Virus record (IMG/VR): IMGVR_UViG_2698536640_000025
Reading direction: 5' to 3' (one strand)
DNA length: 38,686 nucleotides
Origin: a virus
Lineage: Duplodnaviria; Heunggongvirae; Uroviricota; Caudoviricetes
The position numbers and the translations under genes were made by a program. The notes under the pieces are model-generated. The model ran no database searches. It was not told the origin of the DNA and saw nothing but the letters and a program-made list of their open reading frames with translations. How positions within the stretch are numbered: position 1 is the first letter of the stretch; each line of letters opens with the position of its first letter. This document shows, piece after piece, positions 6,401-14,487 of the stretch.

Positions 6401-6838
6401 CCGACCGGAGATCGAAACATGATTGCGCGAAGAGCTGCCAACCGCCTCACAGGCTTTATTCCAGGCAAGGTTGATCATGCACTCCATCACGGGGCTGTCA
6501 CTTTCCTCAACAAAGGAGAGGCGCGCAATCATGCATTCCGGAGTGAGCACGTGGCGCTGGCTAATCAGTCTTTGATAGCTAAGCGCCTGCCATTCAGCCT
6601 TTTCAGCTCTGATAGAAAGAGAGGCAGCCATGACCTGCCACACCAGAAAGAGCACCACACTGGCGAAAACAAACGTTGCGCTGTCGCAAAAAATGAATGC
6701 GGCAACAATCGCAAGGAAAGCGCTAATCCTCAGAACCAAGGAAGCGCGACGGTGGAGAAGGCTTGTCATGTGTTCAAGCCAGTAGCTGTACCACAGGTCA
6801 AAAAGAATTTCGTAATCAGAAGGGAGCTTATCACTCAT
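6374..6838 (-). CDS. Membrane protein (about 154 aa, two predicted TM helices) encoded antisense to the early operon
   Basis: Track ORF 6374..7021; internal ATG start MSDKLPSDYEIL...; hydrophobic segments LVLRISAFLAIVAAFIF and ATFVFASVVLFLVWQVMAA; 3' end overlaps DUF4406 by about 27 nt. Confidence 0.5.
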   Translation of the reverse strand: MSDKLPSDYEILFDLWYSYWLEHMTSLLHRRASLVLRISAFLAIVAAFIFCDSATFVFASVVLFLVWQVMAASLSIRAEKAEWQALSYQRLISQRHVLTPECMIARLSFVEESDSPVMECMINLAWNKACEAVGSSSRNHVSISGRLLSRLCGF

Positions 6839-7221
6839 CAGAAACACCCCGCGTATGCAGACAATCACCAGTTGCCAGGTGATATTAATTCGCCACATTC
6901 TAACCACATCAGCACGCAACACAAAAACCGCTTGCCAGCGCTCGTCGTGTCGGGTTACATTTCCGCTGCACCTCATAAAACGGGTGCCGGGATTTCCACC
7001 CTGCTGACTAGCAAAGCGCACTACCGCGCCAGCGGTTTTTTTGTGCGTACTGTATTGCCACGTTTTTTTCGCATCAGAATTATGGCGGGGCGTACGGGGC
7101 CGACTTCGGTCGGGCCGGGTTCTTTGCTAGCCGGTTGTGGAAACCCTGTACGTCTCGCCACCCCGAGTTTTCCACCTCCGGTTGGTGAGTTTTCAAAACT
7201 TACTAGCAAAGAGGCCACACC

Positions 7222-7443
7222 ATGGCAAACCGCAAGCAACAGCGCGCCCGCGCTGAGCGTCTTCACATCCGCAGCGAAATCAACCGCAGACTTTTCCGCG
7301 CAACACGCGTCGCGCAAATCATGCATATCAACATGCTGCATGAGCGCACGCACGCACTATCAAACCGTTACTGCGCTGCCGTCTTCAGCTATCTGGCCGA
7401 AGACCTGGCAGAACTGCAAAGCCTCATCAACCAGCACCGATAA
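7222..7443 (+). CDS. Hypothetical basic protein (73 aa)
   Basis: ORF track; AAAGAGG RBS; arginine-rich N-terminus. Confidence 0.45.
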   Translation: MANRKQQRARAERLHIRSEINRRLFRATRVAQIMHINMLHERTHALSNRYCAAVFSYLAEDLAELQSLINQHR

Positions 7444-7511
7444 ACCACATCCGGAAGCTATCCCACACCTGCACGCGGGAGGCTTCCGCACATCTGTTAC
7501 CGGAGGTTCTC

Positions 7512-7928
7512 ATGAAGAGCGTTAAGGGACTTTCAGATATTCAGGACTTCTTTAACTGGATGTGGGCGGTGGATCCCCTGCTGGCTTCCCGCCTGAACAA
7601 CTGGCACGACTATTACCGCCGCGCCTGTAAACAGGCCGCCCGCAGCATCACCACATACGGGGATTTCTCCTTCACCGTTGACGGTCGTTACCGCGTGGAC
7701 GTGAAAGGTGACGGTGATGGCTTTGGTTTATTTCACATCAACGGCACCGACAGTACCGCCATCAGCTGGTCATCGTCAGAGATGGCACTGGTTCTGGAAA
7801 TGACAACCCACAGCGTGGCCGTGAAAGGCATATACACCGCAGAAGACTTTATCGGTGAATACCAGCGCCTTCTCGTGCTGTACCGCGCGGCGTTTCAGGA
7901 GGTCACTGGCGGGGAGTACGACGCATGA
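7512..7928 (+). CDS. Hypothetical protein (138 aa) immediately upstream of gpA
   Basis: ORF track; stop overlaps the gpA start (ATGA). Confidence 0.5.
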   Translation: MKSVKGLSDIQDFFNWMWAVDPLLASRLNNWHDYYRRACKQAARSITTYGDFSFTVDGRYRVDVKGDGDGFGLFHINGTDSTAISWSSSEMALVLEMTTHSVAVKGIYTAEDFIGEYQRLLVLYRAAFQEVTGGEYDA

Positions 7929-10438
7929 GTGACCGCAATGCACAGCTGGCGTACCCGTGGAACGCACCGCTACCGGTTATCGATCCTGAAACGTTCGGCA
8001 GAGCACAACCAACCGCATTACGCCAGGCCATTCAGAGCTACATCAACGAGGACATTCGCATTGATGCCAGACTGGATGAAGAAACCGTCTCCTTCCTGAC
8101 AAACACAGACGAAGGCAAGCGAATTAATTCGCATCTTCACCACGACGAAGAGCGTCGGGTCAGACTGGAAAAACTGGCGAAGCACAAACGCGAGAATCCG
8201 CCCACGGTGGTATCGGAAGCCATGGCAGAACTTCGCGCCCTGCCCTCGTTTCTTGGCAACGTGCTCATTCGTGATCTGGCGCGTTTAAACCGCAAACAAC
8301 AAAGCGCCCGCAATGAAGGCGTGAAAAACAACAACACTCACGTGGCCGATAACTTCGTTCGCCGTGGACTGCGCACACGCCTGAAACGCATCGAACAGGT
8401 GAATGAATGCTTCGCCACGACGGCATTCAAAGCCACCGCAGCGCGTCATCGCCTTGATGAATTACTCATGCTGCCACAACTCAACCGTGATCAAATTCAG
8501 CGCCTTGCCACACTAACGGCGGCGGCATTTTCCACCGAACTGGAACGCATATGTGATGAAGTTACTGAGCGGACAGGAAAAGGCGACGATAACCTGTTTA
8601 CCTGGTTGCTGACTTACCAGCAGCTGGCGCGCATGGCAATAAAACTGGGCGTGAACCCACCATACTGGCCGTCACTCGAGATCAGACGTGACCGCCGCAC
8701 GGCACCAGACCCTGAACGGGTACCGGGCGCGGTAATGCGTATCACCTGCGCCACCTGGTGGAACAACCAGCTGCGCCACCTCGCTGATCTCTGGCGGGAG
8801 GAATTACTGCGTGCCGCCGGAAGAGTATCGCGCAAGGCATCCCCCTACATCAGCCATGAGTCACTCCAGGAATTCCGGGAGAAACGCCAGCGCACCCGTG
8901 ATTTTCTCAAAAGCTGGGACATTGAAAACGAAGACGGTGAACGCCTGAGCCTGGAGGACGTGTACTGGTCAGGGCTGGGGAATCCGCGCAACCGCCGCAA
9001 CGAGATGATGGCCTGCGTCAGAGGGATGGAACAGGTCGCCGAATCGCGTGGTGACTCCGCGTTCTTCGTGACAGTGACCTGCCCTTCCCGCTTTCACAGC
9101 GTAAACGAGGACGGCAGCCTGAACCAGAAATACAACGGTGCCACCGTGCGCGATGCCAGTGATTATCTGGTTTACGACGTCTTTGCAGCTGCAAGAAAAA
9201 AACTCAACAAAGAAGGCCTGAGCTGGTACGGGGTGCGCACCGTTGAGCCACACCATGACGGCACACCGCACTGGCACATGCTGGTATTCACCGCCCCGGA
9301 CAATGAAGAACGCATCATTGAAATCATGCGTGACGCAGCAATCAAATCAGATCGCGCAGAACTGGGGAATGATATTTCTCCGCGCTTCAAGTGCGAAAAA
9401 ATCGACCCGGCAAAAGGCACACCGGCAAGCTACATCGCAACCTATATTGGCAAGAACCTGGACGCCAGCACCTTTCACGACAATGACCCGAAAACCGGCA
9501 AACCTTACGCCGATAAAGAATCGGGAAAAACCATGGCGGAAACCGTGGAAAACGCCATTGCCTGGGCGAGTCTCCACCGCATCCGGCAGTTCCAGTTCTT
9601 CGGTATCCCGCCCCGCCAGGTATGGCGTGAACTCCGCCGCCTTGCCGGACAAATGGAGCGTAACCCCGCATCACCGAAGCGCCTGGACCATGACGACATT
9701 GACGCCATTCTGGCCGCCGCTGACGTGGGGTGTTTTGCCACCTACATCAACCGTCAGGGCGGCGTGCTCATTCCACGCAACCTGTACCTGATCCGCACCG
9801 CATACGAAACCGCAGATGAGGCCAACGACTACGGCGAATTCCCGCAGCGCATCTACGGAATTTGTGCCCCGTCGCTCGGCGAGCGCTACACCATCTGCAC
9901 CCATCCGGACGAGTGGAAACTGGTCAGAAAAGAAGCGAAAGCCGACAACAGCACGGACGAGGATTTTGACGTTGGGGGCGGCTTCGCCGCACCTTGGACT
10001 CGTGGCAATAACTGTCCCCATGATGAAAAAACAGACACCGGAGAGGGTAAAACCCCACCACCGGAAACCAGGAAAGAACAAAAACTGACCATCCCGGAAG
10101 GTGATTTGAGCGAATGGTTAAGGTCACTGACCCCCACAGAGAGAAAACAACTCACCAGGCAGCTGAAAGATGCGCCATCTGACACAAAAACCGTGAAAAC
10201 CGGCGGCCCCACCACGCCCGATGACGTCATACATGTGCGTACAGCATTGCCGCTGACTGACGTCACCACCACCGTAATCAAGTCGGCACTGAGCACGACG
10301 GGCGAGGAGCTACACAGTGGCGCAGCACTTTCCGTACACAGAGGTGCACGCGTTCGCCTGCCTGACGGGCGGATTGTGCACTGGGATGAAAAATCACGAA
10401 GCCTGGTGGCAGCAGATCAACCGGAGGTTAACCCATGA
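7925..10438 (+). CDS. A: Replication initiation endonuclease, P2 gpA family (rolling-circle initiator)
   Basis: 837 aa; HUH-type metal-binding motif HHDGTPHWHMLVF and tyrosine motif YIATYIGKNLD; position matches P2 gene A. Confidence 0.9.
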   Translation: MSDRNAQLAYPWNAPLPVIDPETFGRAQPTALRQAIQSYINEDIRIDARLDEETVSFLTNTDEGKRINSHLHHDEERRVRLEKLAKHKRENPPTVVSEAMAELRALPSFLGNVLIRDLARLNRKQQSARNEGVKNNNTHVADNFVRRGLRTRLKRIEQVNECFATTAFKATAARHRLDELLMLPQLNRDQIQRLATLTAAAFSTELERICDEVTERTGKGDDNLFTWLLTYQQLARMAIKLGVNPPYWPSLEIRRDRRTAPDPERVPGAVMRITCATWWNNQLRHLADLWREELLRAAGRVSRKASPYISHESLQEFREKRQRTRDFLKSWDIENEDGERLSLEDVYWSGLGNPRNRRNEMMACVRGMEQVAESRGDSAFFVTVTCPSRFHSVNEDGSLNQKYNGATVRDASDYLVYDVFAAARKKLNKEGLSWYGVRTVEPHHDGTPHWHMLVFTAPDNEERIIEIMRDAAIKSDRAELGNDISPRFKCEKIDPAKGTPASYIATYIGKNLDASTFHDNDPKTGKPYADKESGKTMAETVENAIAWASLHRIRQFQFFGIPPRQVWRELRRLAGQMERNPASPKRLDHDDIDAILAAADVGCFATYINRQGGVLIPRNLYLIRTAYETADEANDYGEFPQRIYGICAPSLGERYTICTHPDEWKLVRKEAKADNSTDEDFDVGGGFAAPWTRGNNCPHDEKTDTGEGKTPPPETRKEQKLTIPEGDLSEWLRSLTPTERKQLTRQLKDAPSDTKTVKTGGPTTPDDVIHVRTALPLTDVTTTVIKSALSTTGEELHSGAALSVHRGARVRLPDGRIVHWDEKSRSLVAADQPEVNP

Positions 10439-10887: not shown

Positions 10888-11058
10888 ATGAACGACATCA
10901 GGAGGATCAGCGACAAAGAGCTTACGAAAATGATTGAGTCGGCGCAGCAGCTGCTTTCACGACGAAATCCGGTTGTGGAAGAAACATGGTGGGAAAATTT
11001 ACTGGCAGCACTGACCGAACTCCGCGAACGCCGGAACAACGAAGGAGCCGCCAAATGA
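10888..11058 (+). CDS. Hypothetical small protein (56 aa from internal ATG)
   Basis: Track ORF 10849..11058; strong AAGGAG RBS before the internal ATG at about 10888. Confidence 0.4.
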   Translation: MNDIRRISDKELTKMIESAQQLLSRRNPVVEETWWENLLAALTELRERRNNEGAAK

Positions 11059-11393
11059 AGACACCCAGAATGACCGGAAAGGTAATCATTTTACGCTACC
11101 TGGAAACGCACGCACGCTTCAGCGCGCCAGAGCTGGTTGAAAAACTGGGCGTGAAAAGGACCATCATTAATCAGGCCGCCGGAAAGATGGTACGCGAAGG
11201 GCTGCTGGTTGTGGACGGGTACACGGACAAGATAACGCATTACCGGAAGCCAACGGAAAAGGAACGACTGGAGCTGGAGCGGCGGGCTGAACAGCAACAA
11301 AAGCCGTCCGTAATCCAGGACTGCAAGCGAAGCGAAATCATGAAGCGAATTCTGTTTATCTACGGCGCTGGCGAAGAGCTGCCAGTCATCTAA
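11055..11393 (+). CDS. Putative winged-helix DNA-binding protein (112 aa)
   Basis: ATGA overlap with the upstream stop; segment VKRTIINQAAGKMVREGLLVVDGY resembles MarR/wHTH recognition helix plus wing. Function inferred. Confidence 0.45.
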   Translation: MKTPRMTGKVIILRYLETHARFSAPELVEKLGVKRTIINQAAGKMVREGLLVVDGYTDKITHYRKPTEKERLELERRAEQQQKPSVIQDCKRSEIMKRILFIYGAGEELPVI

Positions 11394-11425: not shown

Positions 11426-11743
11426 ATGCCAACACAGGTTGCAACAGAGGGACGACTGGCAGCAGACCCGAACACAAGGAGAACAACCAAAGGAACCAAC
11501 GTCACAACGGCACAACTGGCGGTATCACTACCCTGCCATGGCGCAGAACAGCCAACCACAATGTGTCTTTACCTTATTTCATTCGGGAAGCAGCACGAAG
11601 AACTGGCAAAACACAGAAAAGGCGATCTGATTCTGGTGCACGGAAACTTGCAGGTAAACAGGTATCAGGACAAGTACGGGCAACAGAAAGAGGGCTGGCA
11701 GCTGCTGACGCAAAGCATTATCAGCTCAAGAACCGGGCGATGA
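11426..11743 (+). CDS. SSB-like OB-fold protein (105 aa)
   Basis: GRLAADPNTRRTTKGTNVTTAQLAV...LILVHGNLQVNRYQDKYGQQKEGWQLL resembles the SSB OB-fold core; GGGAGA RBS. Confidence 0.5.
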   Translation: MPTQVATEGRLAADPNTRRTTKGTNVTTAQLAVSLPCHGAEQPTTMCLYLISFGKQHEELAKHRKGDLILVHGNLQVNRYQDKYGQQKEGWQLLTQSIISSRTGR

Positions 11744-11753
11744 CTTCACGCAT

Positions 11754-11793
11754 GTTACCCTCAGCAGCGAGGGTAACACAGGATTTCTTTTTT
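11754..11793 (+). terminator. Rho-independent terminator closing the early operon (stem GTTACCCTC/GAGGGTAAC, then a T-tract)
   Basis: Perfect 9-bp stem with 6-nt loop followed by TTTCTTTTTT, read directly. Confidence 0.55.
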
Positions 11794-12329
11794 CAGTCAA
11801 ACCGAAATCGGCCGCTTGTCGCGTATGCATAGGTGACCACCGCACCCAGCGCATTCACACGCTTCTTCACATAAATCACATTACCATCCTGATAGTCACC
11901 GTATGGGTAGCAAATAAAGATTGTTTTTTGCAAATCAGGATCATCAACAAATGCCCCTGAACAACTTTTTGAGCTACCGCGACTGTACTCATAGGGAGCG
12001 GAATAGAATGAATCTTCACCCGGAAGAAAATATATCAGCGTAACCAGGAGGGTAAACAGAATCATCCAGGTAAGAAGGCACATACCCGAAAAAAACTTAA
12101 GATACGATGTAACCCCGGTAAATTTAGACCGATCAACCAGGTTCTTTTTCAACAGGCACAGTGAGACAAAAACCGAAAGCACCACAGACACTGAAACAAG
12201 GCAGTTTGTCGTGAACGAATAAAGGTAGGTAATTCTGTAAACATCGTTTCGCCACCAAATAAAAAGAAAAATCCCCCCCAAAACAGAAAGCGTGACAAAA
12301 GTTAAATAAGGATATGAGTAATTTTTCAC
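11793..12329 (-). CDS. AT-rich accessory gene: membrane protein with three predicted TM helices and an 80-aa C-terminal domain (about 178 aa; track ORF extends to 12437)
   Basis: Hydrophobic segments LTFVTLSVLGGIFLFIWW, LVSVSVVLSVFVSLCLL, MCLLTWMILFTLLVTLIYFL; GTG start with GGTGAG RBS proposed at about 12329; strongly AT-rich relative to neighbours; lies at the P2 tin/old position. Confidence 0.55.
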   Translation of the reverse strand: MKNYSYPYLTFVTLSVLGGIFLFIWWRNDVYRITYLYSFTTNCLVSVSVVLSVFVSLCLLKKNLVDRSKFTGVTSYLKFFSGMCLLTWMILFTLLVTLIYFLPGEDSFYSAPYEYSRGSSKSCSGAFVDDPDLQKTIFICYPYGDYQDGNVIYVKKRVNALGAVVTYAYATSGRFRFD

Positions 12330-12874
12330 AGTTCTCACCCGGCAATACACCACTGATTCAGACAGATGATTATCATCACCACCCACCCCCAAAAATCGCA
12401 AGATAAAAAATGCACAAAAGCGCACGAAATTGCACAATTTTTCTTATGTGTTTCATCCCCATTCAGCCCAGTAACGGCGCTGGCTGAGGCCGGTTTGCAC
12501 GGTGCACGAAAAACGAGGCAATTGCAGCGCGCAGGCGACGAGGGAAGGGCGCCCGAATTGAGGGATGGAAGGCGGGTTGCTTTATTTGGGCTCGTATGGC
12601 GCGTGATACGCACGCAGTAAAGTCAGTTTTGAAAAACCACATCAAAACATGGTCAGGGAAACAGGCCGTCAGAATGCGTCTGATTGCGTCTGGCGAGGTC
12701 GGAGATCGGGAGGGAAACGGACGTGACGAACGGGATAAAAAAGAGAGACAAAAATCACTGAAATCATAAAGTTAATAGAATTTAAAGTATCAGTCATTCA
12801 CGGGTGAAAACTTGCGCACAATATGAGGTGAGCGCAGAATACAGGCTGGCATAAACAGACCAAAGGAGAGCGAC

Positions 12875-13378
12875 ATGAGCCATTTTCGCGATTTGTACCT
12901 GGCAAACAAAAAGAGCCGGGACGCGAGGCGGGAGGTTACAGGGATTCTGCGCAATCAGGCTGAAAAGCTGGTTGCTTTTTATGAGCAGTGGCTGGAATTG
13001 CCTTCAGAGACATGGGAAGACAAAGACGGCGAGCATCATCGTTACGTTGATACGGGGTTTCCGTGCAGAAACGATCGGGACTTCAGGCCATTTCCGGTAA
13101 ATATGATTGCAACCGACACAGATAACATATTCCGGATGGCTGTAAGAACATGGGTTGACTCACACGATGAAGGAGAGTCGGTAAACATAGTCCTGGCAAT
13201 GGAGTTACATTCCGTCGGAAAAGACGGTGTATCTCTTCGGGTTCGCGTGGAAGATGATACCTCCATTCGCGTGGTCATCAACGGAGACGGTGACAGGGAA
13301 TGGCTGCCGATAGTAAACAGTATGAAGATGCATATTATCAGCAAGCTGCAAAGAAGAACGCCATCCGCATTCCGTTAA
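12875..13378 (+). CDS. Accessory hotspot gene: uncharacterised soluble protein (167 aa)
   Basis: ATG with strong AAGGAG RBS; promoter-like TTGCGC-17-CAGAAT upstream; no recognisable motif; between the replication module and the portal gene. Confidence 0.6.
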   Translation: MSHFRDLYLANKKSRDARREVTGILRNQAEKLVAFYEQWLELPSETWEDKDGEHHRYVDTGFPCRNDRDFRPFPVNMIATDTDNIFRMAVRTWVDSHDEGESVNIVLAMELHSVGKDGVSLRVRVEDDTSIRVVINGDGDREWLPIVNSMKMHIISKLQRRTPSAFR

Positions 13379-13393
13379 GAGAGCTGGAGAGTC

Positions 13394-13416
13394 GGGGCAT
13401 AAATTTTTTATGCCCC
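13394..13416. other. Stem-loop (GGGGCATA / TATGCCCC) in the 65-bp gap between the hotspot gene and portal gene Q; no flanking T-tract
   Basis: Read directly; could be a weak bidirectional terminator or part of a packaging (cos) region. Confidence 0.3.
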
Positions 13417-13443
13417 GGCGAAGCAGCAGACAAGCGAAGCGCG

Positions 13444-14487
13444 TCAGCTGGCGTTATCCAGAAGCAGGGCATAGGGGTTAAAGCGCATCACCTCAACGCC
13501 AAGCCATTCATTGACATGCTTCATGGCCTCCATGACAGGTTGCAACTCGTTGATGAAAAACACCCTCGCCGCTTTCTCAACGTCACCAAACGCCGCATTC
13601 CCGTCAGGCATTGCCCCCATCAGTTGAGGTGGTACACGATGGGCAGCAAGGATATCGTCGCGGGCGCTCCCCTTGATGTTCAGGAATTCATCCTTTGCGG
13701 TTATCTGCTGGAACGGCAGTATTTGCACACCATCCTTGCCACCACCCGGCGCATGAAGAAACAGGTTTTTAAACGCCCCGCGACCACGGGAATCCGTAAG
13801 CGTTTTTTTAATGGCCTCGACACTTTCCGCATTCGCCTGAGGTGTGCCTACATAGATAATACACCCGGCATGCGAGCCGTTATCGTAGTAGAGCTTGCGG
13901 AATGTATCCGCTGAGTTTGACAGGCTGACAGACAGCAACCCGCCGATATATTCCGGCATCCCGTAGATCTCCTGATTAATATCAGGATTAAGCACGTGGC
14001 ACACAGTCCCTTTCCTGAAACTGAACTCCGTACCGTCGTCGTTGAGATACCAGTAGGTATCCAGGTCACTTCCCCTGCGTGTATATTTTGCCAGTGCCGG
14101 GCGAAGCAGGAGTGGTTCCCCCAGCCTGTTACGCCGCACTTCAAGATAGGCATTACCAAACACAAACCAGTCGAGCGCAAAGGCTGAAAACGCCTGGCGG
14201 GACAGCAGAGGGTGAGGAACAAAGCACCCGTTCAGGGCGTTGCGCTTGAAGTACAAAGCCGACTGATGCCAGGACGCACGACGGGATGCACGGGCGATAG
14301 CGTTCCAGTCCATGGGGGTATCAAAGTAGCGCCCGTTATCTGCACATGACATGTTATCCAGGAGATCCATGTGGCTGACTTCATAGGGCCCATCAAAGGT
14401 GAATGCGCTGAGTGCAGGCGTTGATTTCAGTGCATCGTGTAACGAATCCTGCCCCCGCTTTCCGGTGTATTTTTTGCGTTTACTCAT
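13444..14487 (-). CDS. Q: Portal vertex protein, P2 gpQ family
   Basis: 347 aa; leftward orientation next to terminase P as in P2. Confidence 0.9.
   Translation of the reverse strand: MSKRKKYTGKRGQDSLHDALKSTPALSAFTFDGPYEVSHMDLLDNMSCADNGRYFDTPMDWNAIARASRRASWHQSALYFKRNALNGCFVPHPLLSRQAFSAFALDWFVFGNAYLEVRRNRLGEPLLLRPALAKYTRRGSDLDTYWYLNDDGTEFSFRKGTVCHVLNPDINQEIYGMPEYIGGLLSVSLSNSADTFRKLYYDNGSHAGCIIYVGTPQANAESVEAIKKTLTDSRGRGAFKNLFLHAPGGGKDGVQILPFQQITAKDEFLNIKGSARDDILAAHRVPPQLMGAMPDGNAAFGDVEKAARVFFINELQPVMEAMKHVNEWLGVEVMRFNPYALLLDNAS

Follow-up and report, generated by a model that had tools for sequence, protein, structure and literature searches.

What do two small, oppositely oriented genes between the replication and portal genes of a P2-family prophage contribute to the phage that carries them, and do they act together? 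The question is posed by the IMG/VR virus record IMGVR_UViG_2698536640_000025 (38,686 nucleotides, hereafter the window), a P88-like, P2-family, Xuanwuvirus-related prophage of Escherichia coli, in which the two genes, here termed A and B, occupy a hotspot of gene exchange bounded by the SSB gene and portal gene Q. A first-pass annotation of the same DNA had treated them as a single cargo at the position of the P2 genes tin and old, and as a candidate for an undescribed defence or exclusion function. We find that the cohesive-end site (cos), which that annotation had overlooked, lies between the two genes and divides the hotspot into two separately evolving slots, and that A and B are two orphan families, reasonable candidates for roles in phage conflict, and not a new two-gene defence system. 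The fuller reading that we favour, to which we would give an even chance, is that the interval holds two independent single-gene morons flanking cos, A of the exclusion type and B a lytic-phase conflict factor. The features that carry the argument are the following.

11793-12329, minus strand: gene A, 178 residues from a GTG start, with three transmembrane (TM) segments and a C-terminal domain holding a cysteine pair; identical to RefSeq WP_000801013.1
12330-12404, minus strand: region upstream of A, with a putative promoter and a -10-like GATAAT at 12369-12374 read from the sequence
12405-12552, no strand assigned: cos region, with TGCAC repeats at 12411, 12431, 12496 and 12503, GCGCAC at about 12421, and the cosN-like 19-mer GGCGACGAGGGAAGGGCGC at 12534-12552
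12553-12725, no strand assigned: conserved non-coding flank right of cos, the left end of the packaged chromosome, kept in the B-less prophages at loci L004 and L002 up to the insertion point
12726-13380, plus strand: B cassette, a 655-bp insertion of 47% G+C, whose empty site in L004 joins GGAAACGGACGTCA to GGAGCTGGAGAGTCGGGG
12875-13378, plus strand: gene B, a 167-residue soluble alpha/beta protein with an isoelectric point (pI) of 6.1 and no hydrophobic segment

The cos site and the two slots of the hotspot

The block of repeats between A and B (the 12405-12520 part) is near-identical in the four cargo variants compared, namely the window and loci L002, L003 and L004, and it aligns in register with cosR/cosL of P2, the right end of P4, Enterobacter phage phiT5282H (a Novemvirus) and a P4-like satellite in E. 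coli ECCNB12-2 (L025). In the annotated P2 genome the physical ends carry three copies of TGCAT and a TGCAT-AAAA, and then, 24 nt on, the cohesive end GGCGAGGCGGGGAAAGCAC. Since different cargos share the segment at 12405-12552, and since the annotated P2 and P4 ends line up with it in register, we assign it as the cos site. Consequently, the 545 bp that separate A from B are not a common promoter region, and in the packaged chromosome A and B are found at opposite ends. A role for the TGCAC repeats as a mere operator of A was ruled out, as the block also accompanies unrelated cargo, occurs in the satellite and lies beside the mapped ends of P2 and P4.

The locus as a whole corresponds to the gpA-gpQ hotspot of P2, running from the replication genes to portal gene Q, adjoining cos and holding rapidly swapped cargo, and the two sides of cos compare differently with P2. 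On the right-arm side, gene A fills the slot of P2 old and tin and shares their orientation, reading away from cos, so that for A the first-pass placement was correct. For B it was not: on that side of cos P2 holds only 167 bp and the tQ terminator, and the slot between cos and the portal gene is vacant in P2 and in most relatives. The B cassette is bounded by the conserved cos-right flank on one side and by a tQ-like hairpin at 13391-13419 on the other; a 57-residue open reading frame (ORF) at 12596-12769 was discarded as a gene, as it spans the junction of the cassette. The P2 proteins themselves are no guide, Old (AAA/TOPRIM) and Tin being unrelated to A and B: Pfam finds no ATPase or TOPRIM domain, A with its three TM segments is unlike either, and a BLASTP comparison of B with Tin returned no similarity (E = 1.7).

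That conserved flanks would enclose swapped cargo had been predicted for this interval, and the alignment across P88-like prophages bears this out with differing inserts. At least seven different cargos occur between the same flanks in P88-like prophages and Novemvirus relatives. With near-identical flanks, P88-like prophages carry A alone, A with three other genes, a DUF4760 protein with B, a TumE/HVO_A0114 toxin-antitoxin pair with B, or ParM/StbA partition genes with a 196-residue protein (P88_4B11); the Novemvirus relatives hold still other genes. The DUF4760 protein, which stands in the place of A in some prophages (L003, 3251-3748), is a frequent occupant of the tin/old slot, and Rousset et al. 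2022 (PMC9122126) list the name at least 197 times in their table of hotspot contents; our literature search found no paper that gives it a function, and it is unrelated to A.

The cos-left block also bears on how cargo moves. In one P88-like prophage the block occurs twice around a three-gene insertion, with a partial copy beside A and a complete copy beside the insertion, and a degenerate copy lies upstream of A in lambdoid phages, which have no P2-type cos. Taken at the sequence level, these arrangements suggest that cassettes may be swapped by recombination within the cos-left block, and the remnants 5′ of A in lambdoid phages suggest that the A cassette was transferred from P2-family phages together with a piece of it. 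Partial or degenerate cos-left copies were recorded directly 5′ of A-family genes at L005 4860-4975 (phage 434) and L020 5570-5700 (CP-933K of EDL933), and further ones at L004 4712-4743 and 7639-7670 and at L016 4895-4925.

Independent distribution of A and B

The two families differ widely in frequency. Within 5426 complete E. coli genomes, the wider A family is present in 478 (~9%) and reaches at least 99% identity in 22, with O157:H7 strains, including EDL933, making up most of the A-family matches listed; B is found at 13 places in 11 genomes. A search with the interval matched 1143 records among complete E. coli genomes, six of which hold it entire. A and B occur together in six records, and a second copy in strain STEC2018-607 brings this to at least seven places. 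A without B is common, either alone or with three other genes, and B has three right-arm partners (A, DUF4760 and the TumE/HVO_A0114 pair). Moreover, each family also stands solo in lambdoid prophages, at different loci: the A gene is placed between xis and exo, and B directly follows the late terminator, ahead of the holin gene. The test for two-gene co-inheritance was therefore negative, with the genes assorting independently, and because cos separates them and their distributions are independent, A and B are not a single cargo, contrary to the first-pass treatment, and in all likelihood do not form a functional pair. As a separate observation, STEC2018-607 (NZ_CP075697.1) carries the prophage region twice (L001 and L043, at ~4.37 Mb and ~0.87 Mb); both copies contain A and B, and in both the large terminase gene is annotated as frameshifted.

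Gene A as a candidate entry blocker

The start of A was set at the GTG at 12329 because of the N-termini of its homologues and the length of WP_000801013.1. A 214-residue ORF (11793-12437) was rejected as too long, given that homologues begin MK(N/K)(Y/D)SYPYL and RefSeq gives 178 residues. The gene is AT-rich and encodes three hydrophobic segments, as first described, its G+C content being 42% against 53-56% for the phage backbone. Full-length relatives are found at 50-58% identity, and the family corresponds to phrog_1416 (E 1e-49), a function-less PHROG. No family reached threshold in Pfam or NCBIfam, PADLOC-DB returned 0 families at E <= 1, and the profiles of the A and B families found nothing below E = 1.9 among PDB sequences. 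In P2-like prophages of Salmonella and E. coli, A occupies the same hotspot with different neighbours every time, and in the lambdoid phages 434, mEp332 and 2B8 and the O157:H7 prophage CP-933K it stands alone, opposite the pL operon.

The loop between TM2 and TM3 (loop 2) has a net charge of +4, which predicts that it is cytoplasmic and hence that the C-terminal domain is periplasmic; A would thus sit in the inner membrane with this domain exposed on the outer face. The domain comprises 76 residues, is beta-rich in the model and contains two invariant cysteines, C123 and C140, which probably form a disulfide. It is also the best conserved part of the protein, at 70% compared with 28-61% for the TM segments, and a one-TM variant (P0028) consists of TM3 and the C-terminal domain only. 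Upstream, the GATAAT element aligns with a GGTAAAT element 5′ of A homologues, and the geometry resembles that of P2, where the old-tin mRNA starts ~150 bp from cosR.

We suggest that A would be made in the lysogen, anchored in the inner membrane by its three TM helices, and that the periplasmic domain with its cysteine pair would block genome entry by incoming phages, as superinfection-exclusion proteins do. The membrane anchor, the small conserved periplasmic domain and the occurrence as a solo moron in several prophage types lead us to this tentative assignment of A as a superinfection-exclusion-type entry blocker acting from the periplasmic face, which we hold at a little under an even chance. 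T4 Sp, lactococcal Sie2009 and Ltp are membrane-anchored exclusion proteins with an extracytoplasmic domain. They can be set beside A by architecture only, sharing a TM anchor and a small extracytoplasmic domain with a conserved surface, and the one-TM variant P0028 has exactly the Sp/Sie2009/Ltp layout; comparison of A with PHROGs and Pfam turned up no homology to proteins of this type, whose sequences were not directly compared with it. P22 SieA is similar in size (162-164 residues, against 178 for A), has three predicted TM segments and is likewise a prophage moron with its own upstream region (PMC10883804), and the proposed action, a block of DNA delivery at the inner membrane, would be shared. 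However, the two differ in several respects: the loop arrangement is not the same (three TM segments being seen in A by hydropathy and in a low-confidence AlphaFold2 model), the conserved FxRYPxEAxxFNK of SieA is cytoplasmic (PMC10883804) and absent from A, whose conserved part is the predicted periplasmic cysteine-pair domain, and the genomic contexts differ, the place of SieA in P22-like phages being between genes 16 and 9.

The best-surviving alternative, though on balance an unlikely one, is that A is another kind of lysogenic-conversion membrane protein, for example an effector of abortive infection (Abi) or membrane depolarisation, a factor for the envelope or for fitness under stress, or a protein that inhibits a periplasmic enzyme such as a lysozyme or transglycosylase. 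A moron position in several prophage types would fit any function expressed in the lysogen, and the frequency of the family in E. coli, with O157:H7 strains so prominent among its matches, could reflect a benefit to host fitness. The C-terminal domain also contains a short SxSGA motif, which we take to resemble that of the MliC/PliC lysozyme inhibitors, although Pfam gives no such match. Against these roles, the neighbours of A vary and include no sensor or partner gene such as an Abi effector would need, conservation is strongest in the predicted periplasmic domain and not in TM helices that might form a pore, and Pfam, NCBIfam and PDB searches yielded no homology to known envelope factors.

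Gene B as a candidate lytic-phase factor

Gene B has the size, low hydrophobicity and strand that the first reading gave it. A strong Shine-Dalgarno sequence, AGGAG, lies at ~12864-12868, and a weak sigma-70-like pair, TTGCGC-17-CAGAAT, at 12812-12817 and 12835-12840; the pair holds its position in the relatives at 77% and 46% identity despite diverged surroundings, which is modest evidence that B may have its own sigma-70 promoter. By eye, no TGT-N12-ACA element is visible 5′ of B, and an Ogr-type late promoter was set aside. Full-length relatives range from 77% and 46% down to ~25% identity, and the first two occupy the same slot between cos and the portal gene in other P88-like prophages.

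Searches for a function gave little. B matches only phrog_5091, a PHROG without known function; no family reached threshold in Pfam or NCBIfam, PADLOC-DB gave 0 families at E <= 1, a tblastn search of 50,697 phage records found no match, and a Foldseek search of the model against BFVD returned nothing at E <= 0.001. Matches to cadherin, Big_9 and beta-propeller repeat proteins (P0050-P0054, P0058 and P0060; phmmer E down to 3e-17) were rejected as compositional, because Pfam assigns them to unrelated repeat families and they fall on the C-terminal, V/D/G-rich strand region of B at residues ~100-160; such matches could mislead automated annotation. The claim that neither protein shows an assignable motif is thus upheld, the Pfam, NCBIfam and PADLOC scans being empty at threshold (the PADLOC run, at E <= 1, covered A, B and SSB) and the PHROGs being of unknown function only.

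The predicted structure of B is confident, with a predicted local distance difference test (pLDDT) score of 89 and a predicted template-modelling (pTM) score of 0.84, and shows a seven-stranded sheet preceded by a long helix at the N-terminus and followed by another helix at the C-terminus. Its nearest folds are the FP domain (Fbxo7/PI31), actin-capping protein and type III secretion chaperones, with which it shares a two-layer alpha/beta sandwich, helices packing on one face of an antiparallel sheet; these known folds are protein-protein interaction modules. Pfam, NCBIfam and the fold comparison revealed no catalytic, enzymatic or nucleotide-binding motif, and since a catalytic motif is missing, B most likely works by binding another protein, to judge from the model.

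A 177-residue subfamily of B is spread across the Enterobacterales (Salmonella, Yersinia, Serratia, Kosakonia, Citrobacter, Rouxiella, Symbiopectobacterium and Izhakiella) and gives a lead to the timing of its expression. At 11 of 12 loci it is found downstream of a Q-type antiterminator and ahead of the holin/lysozyme genes, on their strand, and in the eight of these loci whose upstream regions were aligned it follows ~55 nt 3′ of a GC hairpin and T-run, the hairpin being kept in most. In lambda, the tR′ terminator precedes the Q-dependent late operon, and stx occupies that slot in Stx phages. By analogy with lambda tR′, the lambdoid genes of the B family, lying behind a terminator, would be Q-dependent late genes. 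They share position and orientation with the stx slot of the lambdoid late operon (Q/tR′ to holin). B differs from stx-slot morons in lacking a signal peptide or toxin-like domain, and, unlike the 177-residue subfamily, it is not itself in the antiterminator-lysis slot, lying by cos in a P2-family phage with a weak promoter of its own. In a Kosakonia prophage (L014/L015, 3998-5517), genes for a Ser/Thr protein kinase and a PP2C phosphatase form a pair that follows the Q antiterminator and precedes the B homologue, 5′ of the holin gene, a further accessory module in this lambdoid slot.

We therefore picture B as a cytoplasmic two-layer alpha/beta factor that would bind another protein and act during lytic growth to neutralise either a defence of the host or a rival phage or satellite; the lytic-phase role is favoured because the family is a late-operon gene in lambdoid phages. 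That B has some conflict-related function, whether defence or counter-defence, we consider somewhat probable. A rather improbable variant is that B is a single-protein defence or exclusion factor expressed by the prophage, Tin-like in role. The setting would suit it, as 49% of P2-like elements at the gpA-gpQ hotspot carry a recognisable complete defence system and 81% at least one defence-associated gene (PMC13586616); B is rare and patchy, like defence cargo, and in P88-like phages it stands outside any operon, behind a conserved, weak sigma-70-type promoter of its own. Conversely, B resembles neither Tin nor any PADLOC model, motifs for enzymatic activity or nucleotide binding are lacking, and the lambdoid family, behind a terminator in a Q-dependent late operon, would be expected to be silent in the lysogen.

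Weighing the two-moron reading

Several points weigh against the reading of A as an exclusion protein and B as a lytic-phase factor on either side of cos. (i) No homology or experiment ties A or B to a function, and their defence or exclusion role is proposed from position only. (ii) The nick positions in cos were placed by alignment. (iii) The topology of A was drawn from hydropathy and charge alone; the AlphaFold2 model contains the three helices, but its pLDDT of 65 denotes low confidence and a fold search with it was uninformative. (iv) For A, the consensus promoter scan of the interval finds none, and expression in the lysogen is an assumption. (v) A and SieA are unrelated, with an hhalign probability of 0.2%. 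(vi) In P88-like phages B appears to stand under its own weak sigma-70-type promoter and not under late control. The earlier statement that both genes have promoter-like sequences of their own does not survive the same scan, which found two sites where 2.2 are expected by chance, neither usefully placed; B does have the weak pair described above.

Two alternatives that would deny either gene a separate role fare worse. That A or B, or both, are functionless passengers or decaying remnants in an insertion-tolerant region seems very improbable: no function is known and B is rare (11 of 5426 genomes), but both genes are intact, relatives in several genera retain the full length at identities as low as 25-50%, each gene has a good ribosome-binding site, the model of B is compact and confident, conserved columns already suggest purifying selection, and PMC13586616 reports that such hotspots seldom contain pseudogenes. 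Weakest of all, and now highly improbable, is one two-gene defence system in which a membrane effector, A, and a cytoplasmic sensor, B, diverge from a shared control region: the genes are adjacent and divergent in the window and in at least seven places in complete E. coli genomes, and one prophage pairs B with another small membrane protein, DUF4760, in the position of A, but the DUF4760 protein and A are unrelated, most A-carrying genomes lack B, B also accompanies the TumE toxin-antitoxin pair with no membrane protein, both families stand solo at separate lambdoid loci, and the presumed control region is cos, which places the genes at opposite chromosome ends when packaged, so that the distribution data have already largely refuted the idea.

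Flanking genes and other features of the window

The window has the layout of a P2-family prophage, with integrase, repressor and an early operon including gpA and the SSB gene, followed by portal, terminase and capsid genes. The A/B interval is bounded by the replication module (gpA, SSB) and portal gpQ, a layout also annotated in RefSeq prophages, and the features around it are as follows.

7925-10438: gpA, early operon
11426-11743, plus strand: SSB gene, last of the early/replication operon and left flank of the hotspot; Pfam SSB E 2.6e-12, with the RefSeq label SSB in identical prophages
11753-11793, plus strand: terminator-like hairpin and T-run 3′ of SSB, -16 kcal/mol, z = -4.0, followed by UUUCUUUUUU
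13391-13419, no strand assigned: GC hairpin separating B from the end of portal gene Q and corresponding to tQ of P2, -24.5 kcal/mol, z = -5.2
13444-14487, minus strand: portal gene Q, right flank of the hotspot; Pfam Phage_portal E 2.4e-18

These assignments agree with the first-pass annotation in the place and orientation of the two genes between SSB and portal Q, and in the SSB-like gene and terminator on the left, which the Pfam match and the hairpin support. The stop codon of A abuts the terminator-like hairpin of SSB. The GC hairpin before the portal gene is kept in all P88-like loci, whether B is present or not, and the portal region has ~80% nucleotide identity to P88/Xuanwuvirus phages. 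Just 5′ of SSB, a MarR-type winged-helix gene (10986-11393) matches the PHROG 'Ren-like exclusion protein' (phrog_142, E 2.8e-29); because it is kept in all P88-like prophages looked at, we count it as a core gene and not as cargo. An Rfam scan gave no match inside the A/B interval and two elsewhere in the window, an isrK Hfq-binding RNA (58.9 bits, 6968-7042) and a C4 antisense RNA (80.3 bits, 7078-7165), in tandem in the early region. Both RNAs overlap the 5′ portion of a 368-residue ORF (6419-7525) with regulator-like PHROG matches, and may represent an antisense immunity module of the P1/P7/P4 type in a P2-family prophage.

Prior knowledge and implications

The hotspot, its variability, its link to cos and this particular arrangement are already known: Rousset et al. 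2022 and Moura de Sousa et al. 2026 (PMC13586616) both describe the cos-adjacent gpA-gpQ hotspot, and the combination WP_000801013 ... WP_032330900 is entered as 'hypothetical' in a supplementary table, evidently Table S5A, of Rousset et al. 2022 (PMC9122126). A and B are absent from the systems tested in PMC9122126, and the literature full texts searched and the supplements of Vassallo 2022 (PMC9519451) make no mention of their accessions or PHROG identifiers. Of the first-pass suggestion of undescribed defence or exclusion cargo, the part that stands is that neither protein has an assignable motif; the hotspot itself is published, the arrangement is catalogued, and the function is argued from position only. 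The present analysis adds some detail of the anatomy, namely the division by cos into two slots, the exact boundaries of the cassettes, and the cos-left relic as a tracer of transfer into lambdoid phages; the two orphan families are good but unremarkable candidates.

A more ambitious proposal, which we regard as doubtful, is that A founds a new superinfection-exclusion family, with a disulfide-bonded periplasmic domain and members in P2-family and lambdoid phages, and that B is a new late single-protein factor of counter-defence or competition in a second slot that had not been distinguished before, running from cos to the portal gene at the far left end of the packaged chromosome. The anatomical points are useful for mining this hotspot and leave the current understanding of its workings unchanged, and the cos-left pieces carried by cos-adjacent cassettes may serve as a marker for tracing the transfer of cargo from P2-family to lambdoid phages. 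Should activity be shown for either gene, the catalogue of phage-conflict functions would gain a small single-gene module. Of the two, A would be the more useful, as its family occurs in hundreds of E. coli and Salmonella prophages, including those of many O157:H7 strains, and could thus alter the range of hosts open to phages used in therapy or typing.

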